In this document: positions 19,685 through 39,800 of the stretch, one piece after another
Numbering within the stretch: the stretch's first letter is position 1
Layout: every line of letters starts with the position of its first letter
Source: Candidatus Latescibacterota bacterium
Lineage (GTDB): Bacteria; Latescibacterota; UBA2968
Direction of reading: 5' to 3'
Assembly: GCA_965198115.1 (NCBI GenBank)
Contig: OZ240241.1
Location: 3,296,001 to 3,360,000, forward strand
DNA length: 64,000 bases
Program-made: the position numbers and the translations under genes
Notes under the pieces: model-generated
Seen by the model: the letters and a program-made list of their open reading frames with translations, nothing else
Told to the model about the DNA's origin: nothing
The model's database searches: none

Positions 19685-21104
19685 GGCTCTATCCGGGTTT
19701 CTCAACGGTGAAACTATAGAATGACAAGGTCATAGATCGTTCCCTACGCTTGGTTGTGTGTGTAGGACAATCAAAGCGAAGGGGGTGCGACCTATGACCG
19801 GGAGCAGATTACTATCGAAACTGCTGAGATTCAAGGGGTTCCGTGTTGTCAGCTGGTGGTTTGAGGGGAGAAGCTGCTTCGTCATCGCCGTAAAGCCACA
19901 TAAGAATGGTTGTTGTTGTCCGGAGTTCGGCCGTCGAGGTAAAATCGTCCGCACAATGCCCCATCCGCGTCGGTGGCGTGACATTCCGGTGTGCGGGTGG
20001 AGGGTCTGGCTTCTCTACCATCCTCGGGAGATTCGGTGTCCTACCCACGGTCGTGTGGTCGAGGAGATTCCGTGGGCGGAGCGGTTCTCTCGGGTGACGT
20101 ATCGCTTCGAGTATGCCATGCTGCGCTACTGCCAGACCATGACGCAGAAGGCGGCGTCCGAGTTACTGCGCATCTCTGCCTCGACGCTGTCGGATCTCCT
20201 TCACCGATCCATCACGCGGCTTCGTGAAGGTCATCGTATCCGAGGGCTCAAAACCATCGGGATCGACGAGATCTCCTACGCCAAGCGTCACAGGTACGCC
20301 ACGCTCGTTTACGATCTGGACCGCTCCTGCGTGGTGTGGGTTGGCCGCGGCAGGGCGCGTAAAACGATCGATCGGTTCTTCACAGAGGCTCTCAGTCCCT
20401 ACCGGAGATCCAAGATCGAGTGGGCCTGCTGCGACATGAGCGAAGCTTACATCGGAGCCATCCAGGAACACTGTCCGAATGCCAAGCTGGTCCTCGATCG
20501 CTTTCACATCGTCAAGGCTCTCAATGCCGCCGTTGACGAGGTCCGTAAGGACCAGTGGCGTAAAGCTGCCCCGGATGAGCGCAAAGCCATGAAGGGTCTC
20601 CGATGGCTCCTCTACCGGCACTCAGCGACACGCTCCAGAGGGGATACTCGGACACTCAAAGCACTGGAGAAGGCGAACTACCGAATCTATAGAGCCTGGA
20701 GACTCAAGGACGAGTTCGAGCAGTTCTGGGAATACAAAGCGCCCTGGGCTGCCGAACGCTTCCTGAAATGCTGGACGACGTCCGCACTCAGAAGTCGACT
20801 TGAACCCCTGCGAAAGTTCGTCAGGACCCTGCGACAGCACTTCTTCGGCGTCCTCGCATTCGTGAACACGCGTCTTACCAACGCCATCGCCGAAGGCCTC
20901 AACCGAATCGTCCAAATCGTCAAGAACCGAGCCAGCGGATTCCGCACACTCGACGCATTCAACGATATGATCTTCCTTACCGTCGGAGACATAAACATCC
21001 CTGAGCAGATTCCGAAGAGGTTCCGCACACGCTAACCGCGCCCCCATGCCAGGAACCACGGCACCTTCACCCACTTCATCTCGTTGAGAGATCCGGATAT
21101 AGCC
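19685..21104 (+). mobile_element. ISL3-family IS, copy 2 (transposase 19758-21035)
   Basis: Same 1420-bp element, inverted. Flanks AAAGAAAG / CTAAAAAG do not form a TSD. CPECG is changed to CPEFG. Confidence 0.95.
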
Positions 21105-21432
21105 CTAAAAAGAGACTCACCGAATAGAAGAGTCCGGTGATGATTCCGATGGACTTGAGGCTCTCACCCAATACCATCAAAGAAAGGCATTGAATCCAGC
21201 TTGTCAGCATGCCGTAGATCGTCACCACTTCCTTGTGTGGAATGAGGCCCATTTTCAGATCCAAAGCGGGTAGATACACAAAGCCCCAATGGTGACTGTC
21301 GTGATTGACGGTGGATTCAATCCAGCTGAATGCAAAGCTCACGCAGCACACGGCTATCACCGCAGCATCATAGAAACGGTCGTTCCTGAGAATCGCCCGA
21401 CTTCGCTGAAGAGCAATGGACATTCCTGGCAC
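21105..21432 (-). pseudogene. Membrane protein (GT-C-like N-terminus) truncated by ISL3
   Basis: TM helix, HDSHHWG...GLIPHKEVVTIYG, second TM helix, then runs into the IS end. Confidence 0.6.
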
Positions 21433-21666
21433 GATGATCGTCCTATGGCAGCGGGATCAGGCCGAGCGTAGACGAACTTGGCCGCTGGGGGCGGTAGGTC
21501 GTGGATGGCGTGTTCCCGCCTTCGCGCAGGTGCGCTTCCTCTCGACTTTGCTCGAGACAGGCTCCGGGAACCAGTTGTCAGTCGTCAGGGAAGCTTGCCC
21601 CAGAAAGGGGAAGAGAAACGACGATTGGCGGGAACATGATGACGCGATCGCGAGGCCTGCGCAACC

Positions 21667-21695
21667 TTGACAGAAACCATCGGAAAGTTTAGATT
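21667..21695 (+). promoter_or_regulatory. sigma70 promoter of tRNA-Glu
   Basis: TTGACA-17 nt-TAGATT, ending 15 nt before the tRNA. Confidence 0.8.
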
Positions 21696-21710
21696 CTCAG
21701 CCACTTAGGT

Positions 21711-21786
21711 GACCCCGTCGTTCAGTGGCCTAGGACACCTGACTCTCACTCAGGAAACGGGGGTTCGACTCCCCTCGGGGTCACCA
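21711..21786 (+). tRNA. tRNA-Glu (anticodon CTC)
   Basis: Acceptor stem GACCCCG/CGGGGTC, D arm GTTC/GGAC, anticodon arm CCTGA-CTCTCAC-TCAGG, T loop TTCGACT, encoded CCA; 76 nt. Confidence 0.95.
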
Positions 21787-23306
21787 TGCTAACGCAACCC
21801 AGTGAGTCTAGCAGCCCTTCCGGATTGGCTTCCAGGAGGGCTGCTCCTGTTCTGGGAATCTTGATTTGGCGGATGTGTTCCTGGAGCAGGACCTTCTGCT
21901 CCTCGGGCGTTGCGTAGTTCAGAGTCTCCTTCAGGTCCCGAATCGCGGCCTTGATCTTCCTCCGACCCATATTCCCCACCTGAGCTTTCTCAGCACCCTT
22001 CAGTTCCTTCGTCTCCGCCTTTAGCTCAGTCTTCCGGGCCTCACACGCTTTGTATTCCTTCACGAAATCCTCAATCGGGCCGCCGGCCTTAATAGCCGCC
22101 GTCAGGTTCTTCATCTCCCGATCGACCTGCCGAATCTGGCGATCTACCTCCTTCGCCCGTCCGGAATTCGCCAGTCCCGTCTCTTTAAGCTGAGCCCTCA
22201 ACTCCTCGAGAATGGCCTCGATCGTGTCCACGTTGAGCAGCTTCTCGGACAAGAGGTCCAGAACTGCCCCCTCCAGCTTGTCTTTGTTGACTGTCCGGCC
22301 GTTGCCGCAGACAGCCTTGCCCCGGTTCGAGTGGTAGGAGCAGCGGTAGAATTTCCGGGCTTTCCCGTTCTTCTTTGTCGTGGTGATCGTGAAGTTGGCA
22401 CCACATTCCTCGCACTTGAGGAGTCCTGACAACAGAAACTTCGAGCGAGCACCCTTGTGGTTCGTCTTGCCACTGTCAATATGGAAGCTGATCTGTCCCC
22501 TCTGTGCCTGGACCGCCTCCCACAAGCCGGCCTCGATGATCGCCGGATGTGCGCCTTCGGCAATCACCCACTCTTCGTGCGGCTTTGGAACCTTCGTCCC
22601 TCGCTGCAGCTTCTTGTTTCGCCTGGTCTGATTCCAGACACGATTTCCCAAGTAATTCTCGTTTAGGATGATCGTCCGCACCCCAGAAATGTCCCACGTC
22701 CCATCCCGGGGCGAGATGACGCGATCAGCATTCAGATTGTGAGTGATCTTCTTGTAACCCAAACCTTCGGCGTACTCTCTGAAGATGTGCTGAACGATTT
22801 CTGCTTCTTCGGGCACGACCTCGAATGTCGTGTATTCGACCACCTGGCCGTCTTTGTCTGTCTTCCCCTCAGGATCTGGTACCTTCACACGTCGATAGCC
22901 ATAGGGCGCCTTGCCGCCGCCGTGGAATCCCTTCTTCGTGACCTGCTTCTGGCCCTGGAAGGCGTATTCGCCAATCTGGATTGAGTCGAACTCATCCTTC
23001 CATTCGTAGATCCGCTCTATCAGCGTGCCGATATGGCCTTCCGGGACCGGCTGGGACACGAACCTGACATCTACCCCTTGTCGGCGTAGCCCAATCTTGT
23101 TGAAGATGGCCTCATCCTGGTCGCGACCGAATCGTGATGTTGACCAGGCGATTACGACATCGAACGGGCGTTCCCTGTCCTTGGCGATGCCGACCATCTG
23201 GTTGAAGGCTTCACGCCGGAAGGTTGACGTTCCGGATCGGGCCTCATCGACGAAGATGTTGGCGTCATCCAGAGTCCATCCCTGCTTGGTGATATATTCC
23301 CGACAC
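21746..23306 (-). pseudogene. Large serine recombinase, N-terminally truncated (catalytic Ser motif missing)
   Basis: Frame open from 23306: CREYITKQGW...FVDEARSG, SRFGRD, GGKAPYGY, LLSGLLKCEECG, YRC, coiled coil. No YxRxS motif. C-terminus overlaps the tRNA. Confidence 0.88.
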
Positions 23307-25885: not shown

Positions 25886-28800
25886 TCAATCGATGAGATC
25901 GCCGAAGAAGTTGTTGAAAATCAGGAAGTCCGCCAGATTGACGCTTTCGTCGCCGTTGGCGTCCATTCGCCGGTGCGGCCTCTCTCCGACGGACCATCCG
26001 ACGTCGCTCGACGACTTGTTGAACGCAAGTATCAGCCGTGTAAAGTCCGCGAACCCGACCGACCCGTCACCGTCCACGTCCGCCCACCGTCCCAGATCGA
26101 GAGCAAGCGTCGTGAAGGAGATCACCGACACGGCGGTCTCTTGGCCGTCGAGCGTCCGATAACGAAGCTGGGCTGTTTCGATCCGGGTCTCATTATTCCC
26201 CGAGGCCTCGAAGAATCCCCCGATCGTTCGGAACGTCACCGTTCCCAGATAGCCATCTCCCGGACCGAAATTGCTGCCTTGTGAAACGATCCTCAACTCG
26301 AGCAGCCCTGGCGCGACGATCTCGGACGCGAACTCGCCGACGATCCAACCGTTCGACACCAGAACGAGGGCATCCCGATCATACGAAATCTGAATGGCCA
26401 CTTCCGACACTTCTGGCAGGTCTGAGACGTGAAGCTCCATCGACGCCGTCTCGTTCACACCTAAGCGTGTCGACAGAAGGTCCTGCAGACCGACGCGCGT
26501 GTCGAGGTCGAGTCGTACGCGATCCCGATTGGGCAACACGGCGCTTCCCGCCACATAAATGATCCGGACGCCCTCGATGTCATCCGTGATCCGAACCTGC
26601 CCTCCGAGGAACCCCGCATCGCTCGGCGCGTAGGTCAGGACGATCGTCTCGCTCTGACCGGGCGGCAAATCGTGGATCTCGGTCGCGTTCGACGTGACGC
26701 CCTGGGCAATCAGTTCGATGTCGAACGACAGCTCGACACCCCCGTCGTTCCGCAGCTCGATCGTGTGCGTACTCGTTTCTCCCACGAGCACGGCGCCGAA
26801 CTCCAGGCTGTCAGGAAGATCGACGATCGGGAACGACAACGTATTTCCGACCAGGTTGTTGTTGGAGAAGTCCGCCTCCAGAATGCTGCGATCCGGGTTG
26901 ATGGTCACACCCCATCGAATAGCCGTCGGTGGCTGGCTCCCGGGGACGATGACGGGAACGTTGACTTGCTTGACCTCATCGGGTTCGAGAATACTCGACA
27001 CCTCGGTCACGCCGACCAGCACATCCGTCTCGTCACCGACCACGTCGTCCGTCGTCAGATAGATCGCCACTTCGAAATCGGCGATCGTGCTACCTTCTCC
27101 AGCGTTCCGGACATCCACAAGAATGTTGTAGAGACGACCGCGTGAAACTTCGTCGGGTCCCTCGAGCGACCCCAGGACGACCAGGTCCGGCGGAAACGGA
27201 ACGACGGTGAACAGAAGTCCGATCTGCGCGTTGTTCGTCTCATTCGACTCGATCACCGTGCCACCCTCGTCCACCACCAGCCCCCAGTGATAGTTGGACA
27301 GCGGCAGGTCGGCGGGAACCATCAGCGGAACTTCCGCCACAACGATCTCGCCCGCACCCAGCCCCCCGGTCACCGTCAGGTCGCCCACCCGCACATCGTC
27401 TTCGTCCCCCGCAAGGGCGTTGCTGCTTATGACGGCCGCAATCACGAAGTCGTCGAGCAGGGGCCCACCCGAGAAGTTCTGGATTTCGGCCGACACGGTG
27501 TAGGTGCCCTCTCTCAGCACCTTCGTCGGCCCGACAGGATCCGTCAAAATATGAAGATCCGCAGCGTCGGACGAAACAACGACCGTCGCCGTCGAAACGC
27601 CCCCGTTGTTGAGCTCGCTAACTTCTGTCTCGAAACTCGTCGCATCCACCAGGGCCGCGTATCGGTAGGTCCCCACCGGATGCTGAGATGGGATCGTCAC
27701 CTGCACTTCGAGCGGTGCCCGTGCGTCGTTCAGCATTTCTTCGGTGTAGGTCGTGTTACCGATCCGGACACCGTCGTCGTTCCCTGCCGTCGCGTCTTCG
27801 CTCAGGTAGATCGAAACCTGAAACGCGCCCGTCGTCGTCCCCGCCCCCACGTTCTGAATCTCCAGACTCACGGTGTGGAAAGAGTTCCAAACGACGAGCT
27901 CGGGTCCCTCCGGAGCGATCGACACGACCAGATCGGCGGGCTGTGCGACCACCGTAAAGGATTGGCCGAGGCGCAGGTTATCGGTCTCTTCCGATTCTTC
28001 GATGAACCCACCGTCGTCGACCGCGGCCGCCCAATTGTAGACCCCTGTCGGTTGGACAGCTGAAACGATGACGGGGACGCTCACCATCAGTTTGTCACCC
28101 GCCCCGATCGGGTTGAGAATCGCCGTGTCGCCGACACGAATGTCATCCTCGTTTCCGACGATCAGGTCGGTCGTCAGGTAGACGGCCACGTCGAATGCCG
28201 TGTCAGTCGGCCCGTCGCCCTGGTTCTCGATCTCGAGCGTCACCGTCGTCGACACACCCTGGTAGATGGCCGCGTCGCCCTCGGGTTGGATCGAGATGGT
28301 CAGATCGGGTTCGGTCAGGATGATCTGGACATCGCCGCCAACCTGGACGTTGTTGCTTTCGTCGGTCTCCGGCTGAGTGCCGAAAGCATCGACGACGGCG
28401 ATCCATCGATAGGTGCCTTCGGCCAGGTCCTCGGGCACGAAAACATTGATGTTCTGTGTGCGACTCTCACTCGGATTGACGCTATCCTGCAGCACAACAC
28501 TTCCGACCTGCAAATCGCCTGCGTCGAAAAGGGTATCAACACTCAGGTAGATCGTGACGTCATACGGCGCGAACGACGTTCCCGAACCCGCGTTCATGAC
28601 TGTGACCGACACGCTCCCCGACGTCCCCAAAGACATCAGACTCGGGCCGGTCGGGCCGTCGCTCACAACAAAATCAGGCGGCGTCGGTGCGACCTCCACC
28701 CCGTTCCCGACACCGGCGTTGTTGTCCTCATCGCTTTCGGCGACCACGTTGCTGGCGTCGACCTGAACAAGCCATTGGTAGGCCCCAAGGGCCTGAAGCG

Positions 28801-28962
28801 AAGGAACCCTGATCGGAATCGCCAGAGATCGCGTCTCACCCGGGTCGAGCACGACGGCAACCCCCTTGTCCCCGACCTTTTCGATCGTGGAGGGCTGGTC
28901 GTCCTCGCTCAGATAGGCCGTCACGTCGAACGTGCCGGAGGTCGGGGTGTCGCCCTGATTCC
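25886..28962 (-). pseudogene. Large extracellular CARDB-repeat protein with dockerin/EF-hand-like C-terminus, 5'-truncated
   Basis: About six PDL...NxG...F.V..YLS.D...E..E.NN repeats; DVDGDGSVGFADF and DANGDESVNLADF. The frame starts mid-repeat (NQGDTPTSGTFDV) at 28962 with no signal peptide. Confidence 0.85.
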
Positions 28963-29724
28963 TGTTACGGCTTACGATAGATTCCCGCCCAGATTACGCT
29001 ATTCGCATTCTCACGCACCAAGAACTGACGACCCGGAGATAAGGGGGATGAACTCTCTGGGCGTTCCGATGTAGACCGCGCCCTTTTCATTTTCCCACAC
29101 GCCCGAGAAATAGGCTCTCGAACCGCGAAAATAGCGCGTTTCGACCGATTAGGCTCAAGACGTGGCCAGGCCAGGTCCCAGCGGGCATAGGGGGGTGCGG
29201 AAAACCTGTGGCCGTCCGACCGGAGACCGGTCATGTCCCGTTTCTTTTGCTAATCCGTCCTAATTTCAGTCCCGGACTGGCGCATCGCGGCCGTTGTCGA
29301 CGAAAGGGGGTTTTCAGGTGTCGGAAACACTTAAACCAGTTCAAAAACAAGAGCTTGCGTCTGTCGACAAGGCGGCTTTGAAGGTGCTTCCCGAAAATGG
29401 CGAAGCGGGGTAGAAAATCGGCCGTTTCCCTGGCGGTGTTGCCGATGGCGGACCCGTCGGAGGTCGAGAGCGTTTCGCGTCCCGATCCCCCGGAATGTGC
29501 CAAACGCGTTCGCGTAAAGAAAGGGACATCAGGCGTAGGTCCGACAACCGCTTTTGGCCGTTGCGCCTTGTAAGTACTCCTATGGCACTATGTCGCATGG
29601 CCGCCAGATCTTAGGTGACCCTCAACTCATTAGGGAACGGTCTCCACTGTTAACCGTATTGAAACGATTCTGCCTATTTTGCGAATAGCTTAAGCCAGGC
29701 GGAGAATTATCGCAAGGCGTCACA
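28963..29724. mobile_element. 762-bp non-autonomous element with TGT...ACA ends and 45-bp imperfect terminal inverted repeats
   Basis: Left TGTTACGGCTTACGATAGATTCCCGCCCAGATTACGCTATTCGCA vs right reverse complement TGTGACGCCTTGCGATAATTCTCCGCCTGGCTTAAGCTATTCGCA (34/45). No credible ORF. Both flanking genes are cut exactly at the ends. Confidence 0.8.
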
Positions 29725-31470
29725 GCCATCCAGATGCTCTACCTCGGTGTGGCCCTACAGAGCCGAGGTCAGACCCGGGCCCTGGCCGACGGCATCGGCA
29801 AACCTGTTGCGATTGCGCTAGCCGGGCTCGGTCTTGTCCTCGCGACCGACATACCGCCCCAAGTGCTCGCCATCACCACGGCCGTCGCCGCCGTTGCCTG
29901 GATCTTTCTGGCCCGCCTGAACCACGCGGCCTACGTTCGCGCCCTCATCGCGTCGATCGGCTCTCATCGCTTCGACGCATCGGCCGAAACGGGCCCCGTT
30001 CAGGACAAGGCCTTCGAAGATCACCTCCGCAACGCTCTGGCGACCGGCTCGGATGAGGAAATTACCTATCTGCTGGGCGTCGTCTCCACGATCGACGCGG
30101 ACTGGACGCCCGAGTTCCGTCGCGTACTCGACCGGGAGTCGCCCCACATCAAGGTCATGGCACTGATACATCTCACCGCCAACGGGACGACGTCCGACGC
30201 ACTGGCGGCTCAGCGCCATCTGTCCCACGTCGATCCGTCCGTCCGTGCCGCCGCCATTGAAGCCCTGGCAGCCCTGTCGGAAGACGATCCGCTCGAAGAC
30301 ATCGAACGATGCCTGGACGATCCGGACCCGGAACCCCGTGCGGCCGCGATCGCCTGCATGATCGGAAGCGGTGACCTGGACCGCCTGCTCAGCGCCGGCG
30401 CGTCACTCAAGACCTTGCTAGAATCGCAGGCTCCAACAGAACGGATCGGCGCGGCGACCGCCCTTTCCAAGATCGAGCGCGGGGGCATGGTTCGGCCCCT
30501 CGTCCGCCTGTTGCAGGATGACGATCCCGAGGTCGTCATCGCCGCCCTCCGGGCGTGTCGCAACCAGCAAGACCCCCTCCTCCTGCCCGTCATCACGCCC
30601 CTCCTGGCGGAACCGCACGTGGCCCACGAAGCGGCGGACACGTTGAAGGCCTTCGATTCGAGCGTTCTGGACCACCTCATCCCCTACATCGAGCTCGCCC
30701 CGGAAGAAGGTGCCTTCGACGGTGCCGCCGGAATACCCCCAATCCTGGCCGAAATCGGGGACGAGGCCTCCGTCCCGGTTCTGGCAAAAGCGTCTCGCTC
30801 CGCCGACCTCACCCTCAGAGCGCAAGCAATCGAGGCGCTCGCACAGCTCATCATCCGCCTAGGTGCCCAGAATCGCTACGCCGAGGAGACCCAGGAACTT
30901 GCCAGGGGCGAGATCGATGCTTGCCTCCAGTGCCGCGTGCGTCGAGCGGCTGTTCGAACCGCCTCTCGGGCTCAGGTCCTCGTCGATGCACTCGATCACC
31001 AGGCCGGCATCCACCTCACGAATGCGCTAAGGCTCCTCGACCTCACCACGCCCGAAGTCGATTTCCTTCAGCTGCAGGACTCCATTCGGCTGGGTGGGCC
31101 CCAGCGTGCGAGCGCGCTCGAGGTCGTCGACAACGTTGTCAAAGGACCCCTTAAGACGGACCTTCTGGCCTGCCTGGACGGCCGCACGCCGAGCGTGCTC
31201 AGCCAGGAGGATCCTCTGGACGCCATCCTCGCGAGCGACACGTCGGAATGGGTGCGGATCGGGACCCTCTTCGCGGCCTCAGAGGGACCGGACCGAGAGC
31301 TGATTCGGCAATCGACCACTCACTTGGAGCCCGTCGTGCGGGAAACCGCCCTGTTCGCCCTCCACCACGTGGCACCCGCGTCGGCCGTCGAATCCGCACA
31401 GCGTCTCAACTCGGATCCGGCGGTCGTCGTGCGAGACATAGCGAACCAGATTCTGAATGAATCTTCTTAA
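29725..31470 (+). pseudogene. NTT/TLC-type MFS transporter-HEAT repeat protein, 5'-truncated
   Basis: Starts at AIQMLYLGVALQSRGQTRALADGIGKP (last TM helices), followed by many DPSVRAAA/DPEPRAAA HEAT repeats. Confidence 0.75.
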
Positions 31471-38634: not shown

Positions 38635-39800
38635 GTGTCACGTCCCGCGTATAAGCTTCAAAAGTTTATGGACTTTCTCGAGGATTGAATCTGCCGTGGC
38701 GGTCCAGACGAAGGGTGTAGAATTCTCGTTGTAGTGATCAGTGAATTTCTTGATGCAGGCGATCAGGTCCTTGACGCTTCTGAAGGTGCCTCGTCGAATG
38801 GCTCTTTGGGTGATGATACCGAACCAGATCTCTACCTGGTTCAGCCAGGAGGCATATGTTGGTGTGTAGTGCACGTGATATCGTTTCCGTGAGGCGAGCC
38901 AACGCTTGACGTTCGGGTGCTTGTGCGTGCCGTAATTATCGACGACCAGATGGATGTCGAGATCCTTTGGGACGTTCTTGTCGATGTGCTTGAGGAACTG
39001 AAGGAACTCTTTGTTGCGGTGTCTGGGCTTGCACTGAGTCAGAACTTTGCCGGATGCGATGTTGAGCGCTGCAAAGAGGGTGGTCGTGCCGTTCCGGATA
39101 TAGCTGTGAGTGACGCCCTCGACGTATCCGAGACCCAAAGGAAGAATCGGTTGTGTCCGTTCGAGTGCTTGAATCTGGCTCTTCTCGTCTACACAGAGCA
39201 CCATCGCGTTGTCCGGTGGGTTCAGGTATAGACCGACGATATCCCTGACTTTCTCGACGAAGAAGGGATCGTTCGACAGTTTGAAGTGCTTCTGTCGATG
39301 CGGTTGCAGTCCAAAAGCTTTCCATACACGTTGAACCGAGGACTTGGAGAGCCCCGTCTCGTCGGCCATCGAACGACAGGTCCAGTGGGTGGCACCCTTC
39401 GGTTGCTTCTTGAGCGTCTTGTAGATGAGGGAGGAGATCTCTTCGTCGCTGACCGACCGTGGCCCTCCAGGACGCAATTCGTCATACAGTCCCATCAAGC
39501 CTTGCTCGCAGAAGCGACGACGCCACTTGCCGACAGACGCTCCGGACAACCCGACTCGTTCCGCGATCTCCTGATTGGTCAGACCGCAATCGCTCATCAA
39601 GACGATCTTCGCGCGACGCACCAAAGCGTGAGACATGCTACGCGAACGAGACAATGACTCGAGTTGATCGTGGACCTCATCACTGATGTTCAGTGGCTGT
39701 AACGGACGACCTCTAGCCATCGGTTCCTCCCAAGAATGAGTGCTTGAGGAACCATACGACAGAATCGAATATTTTTCTAGTTATTCCTGGGACGTGACAC
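38635..39800 (-). mobile_element. IS630-family IS (transposase 38638-39720)
   Basis: TA|GTGTCACGTCCC ... GGGACGTGACAC|TA; CVDEKSQIQAL, VDNYGTH, SWLNQVE. Confidence 0.95.

Follow-up and report, generated by a model that had tools for sequence, protein, structure and literature searches.

The usual source of a bacterial MITE is an insertion sequence, and phage satellites tend to be integrative elements with several genes. Phage Mu packages its DNA via pac, and elements of the IS21 type have TG..CA ends with internal repeats and target-site duplications (TSDs) near 7 bp. Among the transposable phages, the TSD is 5 bp in Mu and 6 bp in B3, and ends that start with TA are a described variant (PMC8705779); the MuB protein directs target choice and cis-immunity (PMC2837660). 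In the cos phage HK97, the cos site has a 10-nt 3' overhang and TerS binds from +15 to +29 (PMC11331095). The element EcCICFT073 has two functional cos sites, and a cloned cos makes plasmids phage-transferable (PMC6092414).

The 762-bp element considered here has features of several of these systems. It is probably best explained as a gene-less mini-transposon that was mobilised in trans by a helper of the Mu/B3 type, and that has captured a packaging region with two tandem cos sites of the HK97/D3 type.

The element, its copies and the adjacent deletion

The element lies at 28963..29724 of the window (the whole 64,000-nucleotide stretch of a Candidatus Latescibacterota genome that was analysed), with TGT at 28963 and ACA at 29724. 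Its left terminal inverted repeat (28963..29007, forward strand) consists of TGT followed by putative transposase-binding motifs at 28972-28979 and 28994-29001, with a 22-bp period; the right repeat (29680..29724, reverse strand) has its motifs at 29715-29708 and 29693-29686. The four motif starts (28972, 28994, 29715 and 29693) thus fall at positions 10 and 32 from either end, and each end reads TGT, 6 nt, an 8-nt motif, 14 nt and another 8-nt motif. The two 45-bp repeats agree at 34 of 45 positions and form the longest inverted repeat within 28500-30200. The termini, repeats and motif positions are those given in a preliminary description of this DNA, which also held that the element lacks an ORF and a target duplication. 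Both points stand: the three short frames inside the window copy (85-90 aa) appear spurious, since none has a match in Pfam or PHROGs at E<=0.01 and copies differ by indels, and the flanks (TGATTCC and GCCATCC) show no duplication. Contigs of sequencing run X1, perhaps the sample behind this genome, cross both element-gene junctions without differing letters; depth is about 10 in the flanking DNA and rises to 160-310 over the element.

The element belongs to a real, recently amplified multicopy transposon family. The source genome (G000; 8.43 Mb, one contig) has 18 two-ended copies, together with one left-end partial copy and several fragments. The copies are 751-823 bp long except for one of 3598 bp (G000 1815541-1819138), whose insertions include two that are IS256-like. 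Exact 7-bp TSDs flank 12 of the 18 copies, and at one more 6 of the 7 bp agree; two identical copies bracket an 11.3-kb composite and have an outer 7-bp TSD in common; of the remainder, one copy has a 4-bp overlap and two, the window copy included, have no TSD. The preliminary view of a non-autonomous element with TSD-flanked copies elsewhere is supported, but the TSD is 7 bp rather than the expected 4-6 bp. Target sites favour A/T at positions 3-5, and 7 of 13 reconstructed empty sites lie inside frames of at least 275 aa. At G000 1426914-1427051, another copy sits within a fragment of a third; since copies are nested and several are clustered with IS256, target immunity looks weak. Two same-direction copies lie 31 kb apart, which is close to a phage genome length and in line with chance expectation. 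(Many IS families have expanded in this genome; the window itself has genes for an ISL3 transposase, a large serine recombinase and an IS630 transposase, at 19758-23197 and 38638-39720, no more than 10 kb away.) Run X4, which belongs to a different study, has a contig with a full-length variant about 660 bp in size. The element was not found in 60 relatives searched, nor in genomes G108, G092, G079 or G051, many of these assemblies being incomplete; BLASTN against cultured phages and plasmids gave only chance-level matches.

At the window site, both flanking genes end exactly at the element termini. On the left is a CARDB/dockerin surface-protein gene (25886..28962, reverse strand), which is 5'-truncated by about 28 codons and has lost its promoter region; relative to a genome of the same genus, G001, the lost part includes a signal-peptide-like N-terminus. 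On the right is the HEAT-repeat 3' part of a TLC/NTT-HEAT gene (29725..31470, forward strand), 5'-truncated by about 332 codons. In G001 the two genes are intact, adjacent and divergent, which confirms the earlier claim that two diverging genes were cut at the ends. About 1418 bp of the G001 sequence is missing (the left junction is uncertain by about 10 bp), made up of the 28 or so CARDB codons, 338 bp of intergenic DNA with the divergent promoter region, and the roughly 332 TLC/NTT-HEAT codons. The window copy has no TSD because this 1.4 kb beside it is gone. The preliminary description had placed the element at a rearrangement breakpoint and had expected the missing 5' gene halves beside another copy. 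There is indeed an adjacent rearrangement, but comparison with G001 argues strongly for a simple local deletion of about 1.4 kb and not for anything larger; G001 is collinear to the left and to the right of the site, for which reason an inversion or translocation was rejected, and a search of the rest of G000 for the missing DNA returned paralog-level matches only. Such a deletion would arise if one end inserted intramolecularly 1.4 kb away, or if two same-direction copies recombined. In either case both 5' gene ends would be lost and the flanks left unmatched; the two routes yield an identical product.

The interior and its cos-like sites

Two cos-like sites follow the left end. Site A (29040..29111, forward strand) has a G-run, an 18-mer at 29061-29078, AGACCG and a D3-like right arm. 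Site B (29187..29266, forward strand) has a G-run, ACCGGT (29226-29231), a variable core (29232-29240) and a right arm whose CTAATCCG box (29250-29266) resembles the HK97 TerS site. Both sites have the layout of cos regions of the HNH-terminase kind, and this resemblance was tested. The site-A pattern is present in 33 viral contigs, which are essentially one phage clade; it lies directly before a terS-like ORF in 32 of them and directly after an HNH-like ORF in 31. The site-B pattern has five viral matches, four of them upstream of a terminase gene and in unrelated phages, as compared with two for a reversed control. Thus, in 32/33 and 4/5 of the viral matches the position is that of an HK97/D3-type cos, between HNH and terS. 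(The exact site-B arm pattern had no match among viral contigs, and the site-B arm pattern was not found in the 167 other genomes of the phylum, many of which are incomplete.) The HK97 and D3 termini have the same layout of G-run, about 20 nt, ACCG, core and T-rich arm, and the deposited termini of these phages lie about 8-12 nt past the G-run...ACCG motif. The CTAA-Y-CCG box comes 24 nt after ACCG in site B versus 26 nt in HK97; the core of site A is shorter than that of D3.

The source genome itself contains a phage of this kind. Its single terL (phrog_9) is part of a prophage of the HK97 type (about 642.6-683 kb), which also has genes for HNH, TerS, portal, protease, capsid and tail; those for HNH, TerS and TerL lie at about 662.7-666.0 kb. 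The pre-terS site of this prophage matches site A at 17 of 18 nt, a score reached by 0 of 299 random windows. The presence of a cos-type prophage with HNH, terS and terL in the same genome makes the cos assignment open to tests with purified proteins. (Between HNH and the cos-like site, this prophage also carries a HicB-like antitoxin gene with a probable HicA partner; L189:430-1130, G000 663078-663778.) These comparisons make it very probable that the cargo derives from cos DNA, and the interior is probably a packaging region captured from a phage or a satellite. Whether the sites still work is another matter: a cos terminase may still cut them, but we would put this at somewhat below an even chance.

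The interior arose by deletion from a longer parent segment. At G000 8403447-8402781 this parent retains an extra 81-aa ORF between 9-bp repeats; in the window copy, a 9-bp direct-repeat scar (29399..29407, forward strand) marks where the ORF was deleted. The ORF has four homologues at 58-66% identity and no family. An Atlas search returned unnamed clusters only, and the ORF was not found in the 167 other phylum genomes, many of which are incomplete. Within 7 kb at G000 8396846-8403447 are three solo site-B-like sequences amid decayed elements, one of them preceding the 81-aa ORF. A satellite-like remnant (L041:6094-12106, G000 5976093-5982105) contains an integrase, an AAA protein, terS and, as read by eye, an AlpA-like frame; it terminates in the partial element copy at 5976093.

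Copies of the element are mosaics. Two left-arm alleles, three core alleles and two right-arm alleles occur in combination. In an alignment of 16 copies (the 17 under 1 kb minus one identical twin), diversity is highest at element positions 241-280, which is site B. Cutting and re-joining at cos would give such a pattern, and general gene conversion is an alternative source. Four-gamete intervals are found all along the element (Rm 15), so that mosaicism is not a peculiarity of the cos core. This suits a rival reading, to which we give nearly an even chance, that accepts the same origin but takes the cos cargo to be a dead relic: a deletion-derived MITE would have trapped satellite DNA, and gene conversion would have produced the mosaics. 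The location of the parent segment and the solo site-B copies among decayed elements also fits this reading, as do the G-runs, whose length varies freely between copies. So does the outcome with a generic cos profile (built from D3 and 17 phages selected by terL, and anchored on a loose motif that we chose), which scores the copies at 6.6-9.3 bits versus 8.9 for the best reversed-genome control; an unsupervised motif search did not isolate the motif. Other observations are harder to reconcile with a dead relic. Core B is flanked by three of the four shortest four-gamete intervals. Identity drops at the core: copy 4612930 and partial copy 5976093 are 98.9% identical to other copies on its left but only 82-85% on its right, and in the X4 variant the sequence is replaced from 29228 on. 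Finally, ACCGGT and the CTAA box are almost invariant despite the variable core between them.

The ends and Mu-type transposases

The preliminary description had compared the ends with those of Tn7, Mu and IS21 and had proposed mobilisation in trans. The sole Mu-type transposase of G000 (PHROG310, rve) keeps the invariant D154/D240/E276. Together with a DUF3102 gene, it lies within the 11.3-kb composite and directly abuts the right end of a copy, a junction that is also present in a run X1 contig. The gene is frameshifted and C-terminally broken, about 78 aa short, with no ATPase partner or virion gene beside it; no other Mu-type phage gene remains, and an intact helper with the element's ends was not found in G000. 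Its position next to a copy could be a chance insertion. (Among the cargo of the composite is a compact, polymerase-like fusion gene; its 1069-aa product has the RNA polymerase domains Rpb2 (beta) and Rpb1 (beta'), and an ECF sigma factor is encoded beside it; L039:3406-7187, G000 1427405-1431186.) With the ATPase lost, nearby targets would be favoured, if what is described for MuB (PMC2837660) applies to this locus.

Further evidence on the type of enzyme comes from elements elsewhere. Relatives of the transposase occur in 5 of 168 phylum genomes, G000 included, and the closest (39% identity) is in G108, in a transposable prophage with genes for a repressor, DUF3102, transposase, ATPase, terminase, portal and protease; a single-protein scan of wider genome contigs found no relative. 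Both ends of the G108 prophage read T(G/A)T, 6 nt, motif, 14 nt, motif, and a reversed-pattern control had no match there. They are identical to the element's left end at 25-27 of 41 positions and to its right end at 19/41 and 25/41, the latter value being that of the tail-side end, which begins TAT and not TGT. (This B3-like, divergent prophage, at C1:1-33336, C2:1-9859 and C2:4131971-end of G108, is present in more than one copy and breaks the assembly; its flanks do not match, and no TSD can be read.) Across genome contigs the end pattern has 11 matches, three of which are the G108 prophage ends. The other eight, and 11 of the 12 viral matches, have no linked Mu-type gene and were treated as chance. 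The remaining viral match, L124, was thus found via the end pattern alone and was the sole match when 20 end-pattern loci were searched with tblastn. It is a complete, capsid-less Mu-type transposon of 8110 bp (L124:127-8236, IMGVR_UViG_3300021416_000040) with a repressor, a CII-like gene, an HTH gene, a DUF3102-like gene, transposase, ATPase and three small genes. Both of its ends (TGT..ACA) have the element's geometry, and its TSD is 6 bp, although identity between the transposases is only 22%. L124 is a natural autonomous mini-Mu. A motif match at L052/L068 was not counted, since it faces away from the transposase. In three further viral records with a transposase, no convincing end was seen.

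The G108 and L124 ends are TG..CA-type ends with repeated helper sites, as in Mu and B3, and they make a Mu-type origin of the element's ends quite probable. As far as sequence comparison goes, the element likely originated from, and was likely mobilised by, a transposase of the Mu/B3 transposable-phage type. The earlier assignment thus holds for a TnsB/MuA-type DDE enzyme, and not for Tn7 or IS21; a Cas-linked partner, which had also been suggested, gives way to a transposable-phage transposase; and mobilisation in trans fits the Mu-type ends and transposase, although no intact helper is present in the genome. It is improbable that the mobilising enzyme is instead of the IS21, IS481 or Tn7 type. 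The TG..CA ends, internal repeats and 7-bp TSD would fit IS21, the 8+22-bp spacing is similar to that of Tn7, IS21 ATPase remnants are present in G000, and 7 bp is outside the 5-6 bp range of the phages. Nevertheless, two independent Mu-type elements have the motif at their ends, and the transposase falls far below NCBIfam cut-offs for IS21 and IS481. A G000-wide scan for the end motif outside the family gave two weak isolated matches only, and no such end was seen at the 13 rve/IstB loci inspected in G000, several of them without a resolved boundary. No catalogued or resident IS21, IS481 or Tn7 element with the same ends was found among cultured phages and plasmids or in the G000 scan. (The PF09299 profile had no match in any control genome and is therefore not informative here.)

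A proposed mechanism and its relation to known systems

In the proposed mechanism, a MuA-type enzyme would bind the two motifs at each end and insert the element with a 7-bp stagger. HK97-type TerS, TerL and HNH would cut the core after ACCG, with packaging proceeding onward through the right end. Re-joining after packaging would then swap left and right halves among copies and satellites, leaving mosaic cores. The element would be a jumping cos site, a gene-less double parasite of less than 1 kb that is copied by a Mu-type enzyme and cut and packaged by unrelated HK97-type phages; taken as a whole, this picture is doubtful. If true, a jumping cos site would turn neighbouring DNA or a plasmid into a natural cosmid, and a left/right chimera would re-form at the cos core after transfer. 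Core alleles would be swapped to track helper phages, the transposase clade would be one that makes 7-bp duplications, and cos phages could transduce host DNA from many chromosomal positions. Even with dead cos sites, a natural mini-Mu MITE and a likely 7-bp TSD variant are documented, and a short end signature detects Mu-type elements from the DNA pattern alone.

Two further readings of the interior fare worse. The dispersed cos-like sites could be decoys or suicide targets: they would titrate the terminase of a cos phage or lead it to cut the chromosome in about 20 places, so that phage output is limited and retention of the copies favoured. High copy number and similarity to the resident prophage site agree with this, as does the in vitro stalling of the HK97 motor at internal cos sites with bound TerS (PMC9410871); but the copies disrupt frames as any transposon does (the empty sites given above), in a genome where other IS have expanded as well, and we judge the idea very improbable. 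The functional non-coding cargo of the preliminary description survives as cos-like DNA cis-sites, whereas a structured non-coding RNA is scarcely credible: some 670 bp are gene-less and element positions 500-760 are the most conserved segment, but Rfam gave no match near the gathering score, folding gave a z-score of 0.46, scans for a sigma-70 promoter or a terminator found no match, and the conserved interior motifs correspond to DNA packaging sites.

The element works like a MITE or a mini-Mu, and of the MITE features it has all but an intact resident helper. No published natural non-autonomous derivative of a transposable phage, and no cos-bearing transposon, was found in a search outside which most subscription papers lie. 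Ends from a transposable phage that enclose packaging sites from another class of phage would join two routes, that of the MITEs and that of the phage satellites, in less than 1 kb. Like bacterial MITEs, the element is non-coding and multicopy, with terminal inverted repeats, TSDs and a helper in trans; unlike them it is longer, its inferred helper is of the phage type and not an IS, and its interior is a recognisable packaging region. With cosmids and the cos-type PICIs EcCICFT073 and SaPIbov5 (PMC6092414), it has in common two sites per element, here cos-like. A PICI carries an integrase, an att site, and regulatory and replication genes; the element has no gene at all, for which reason assignment to the PICIs was rejected, and it has transposon ends and many chromosomal sites. 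Its cos-like sites have the HK97/D3 succession of G-run, about 20 nt, ACCG, core and T-rich arm, without HNH or terS alongside and with a core that differs from those of the phages and varies among copies. Mu uses pac, whereas the element carries cos-like sites. The TSD of 7 bp differs from the 5 bp of Mu and 6 bp of B3 (PMC8705779). In common with Mu/B3-type phages and with mini-Mu and mini-D3112, the element has TG..CA ends, repeated transposase sites and adjacent rearrangements, and the MuA-type DDE helper is preceded by DUF3102, as in the Mu/B3-type phages; unlike mini-Mu and mini-D3112, it is natural, 0.75-0.82 kb long, gene-less and present in 18 copies.
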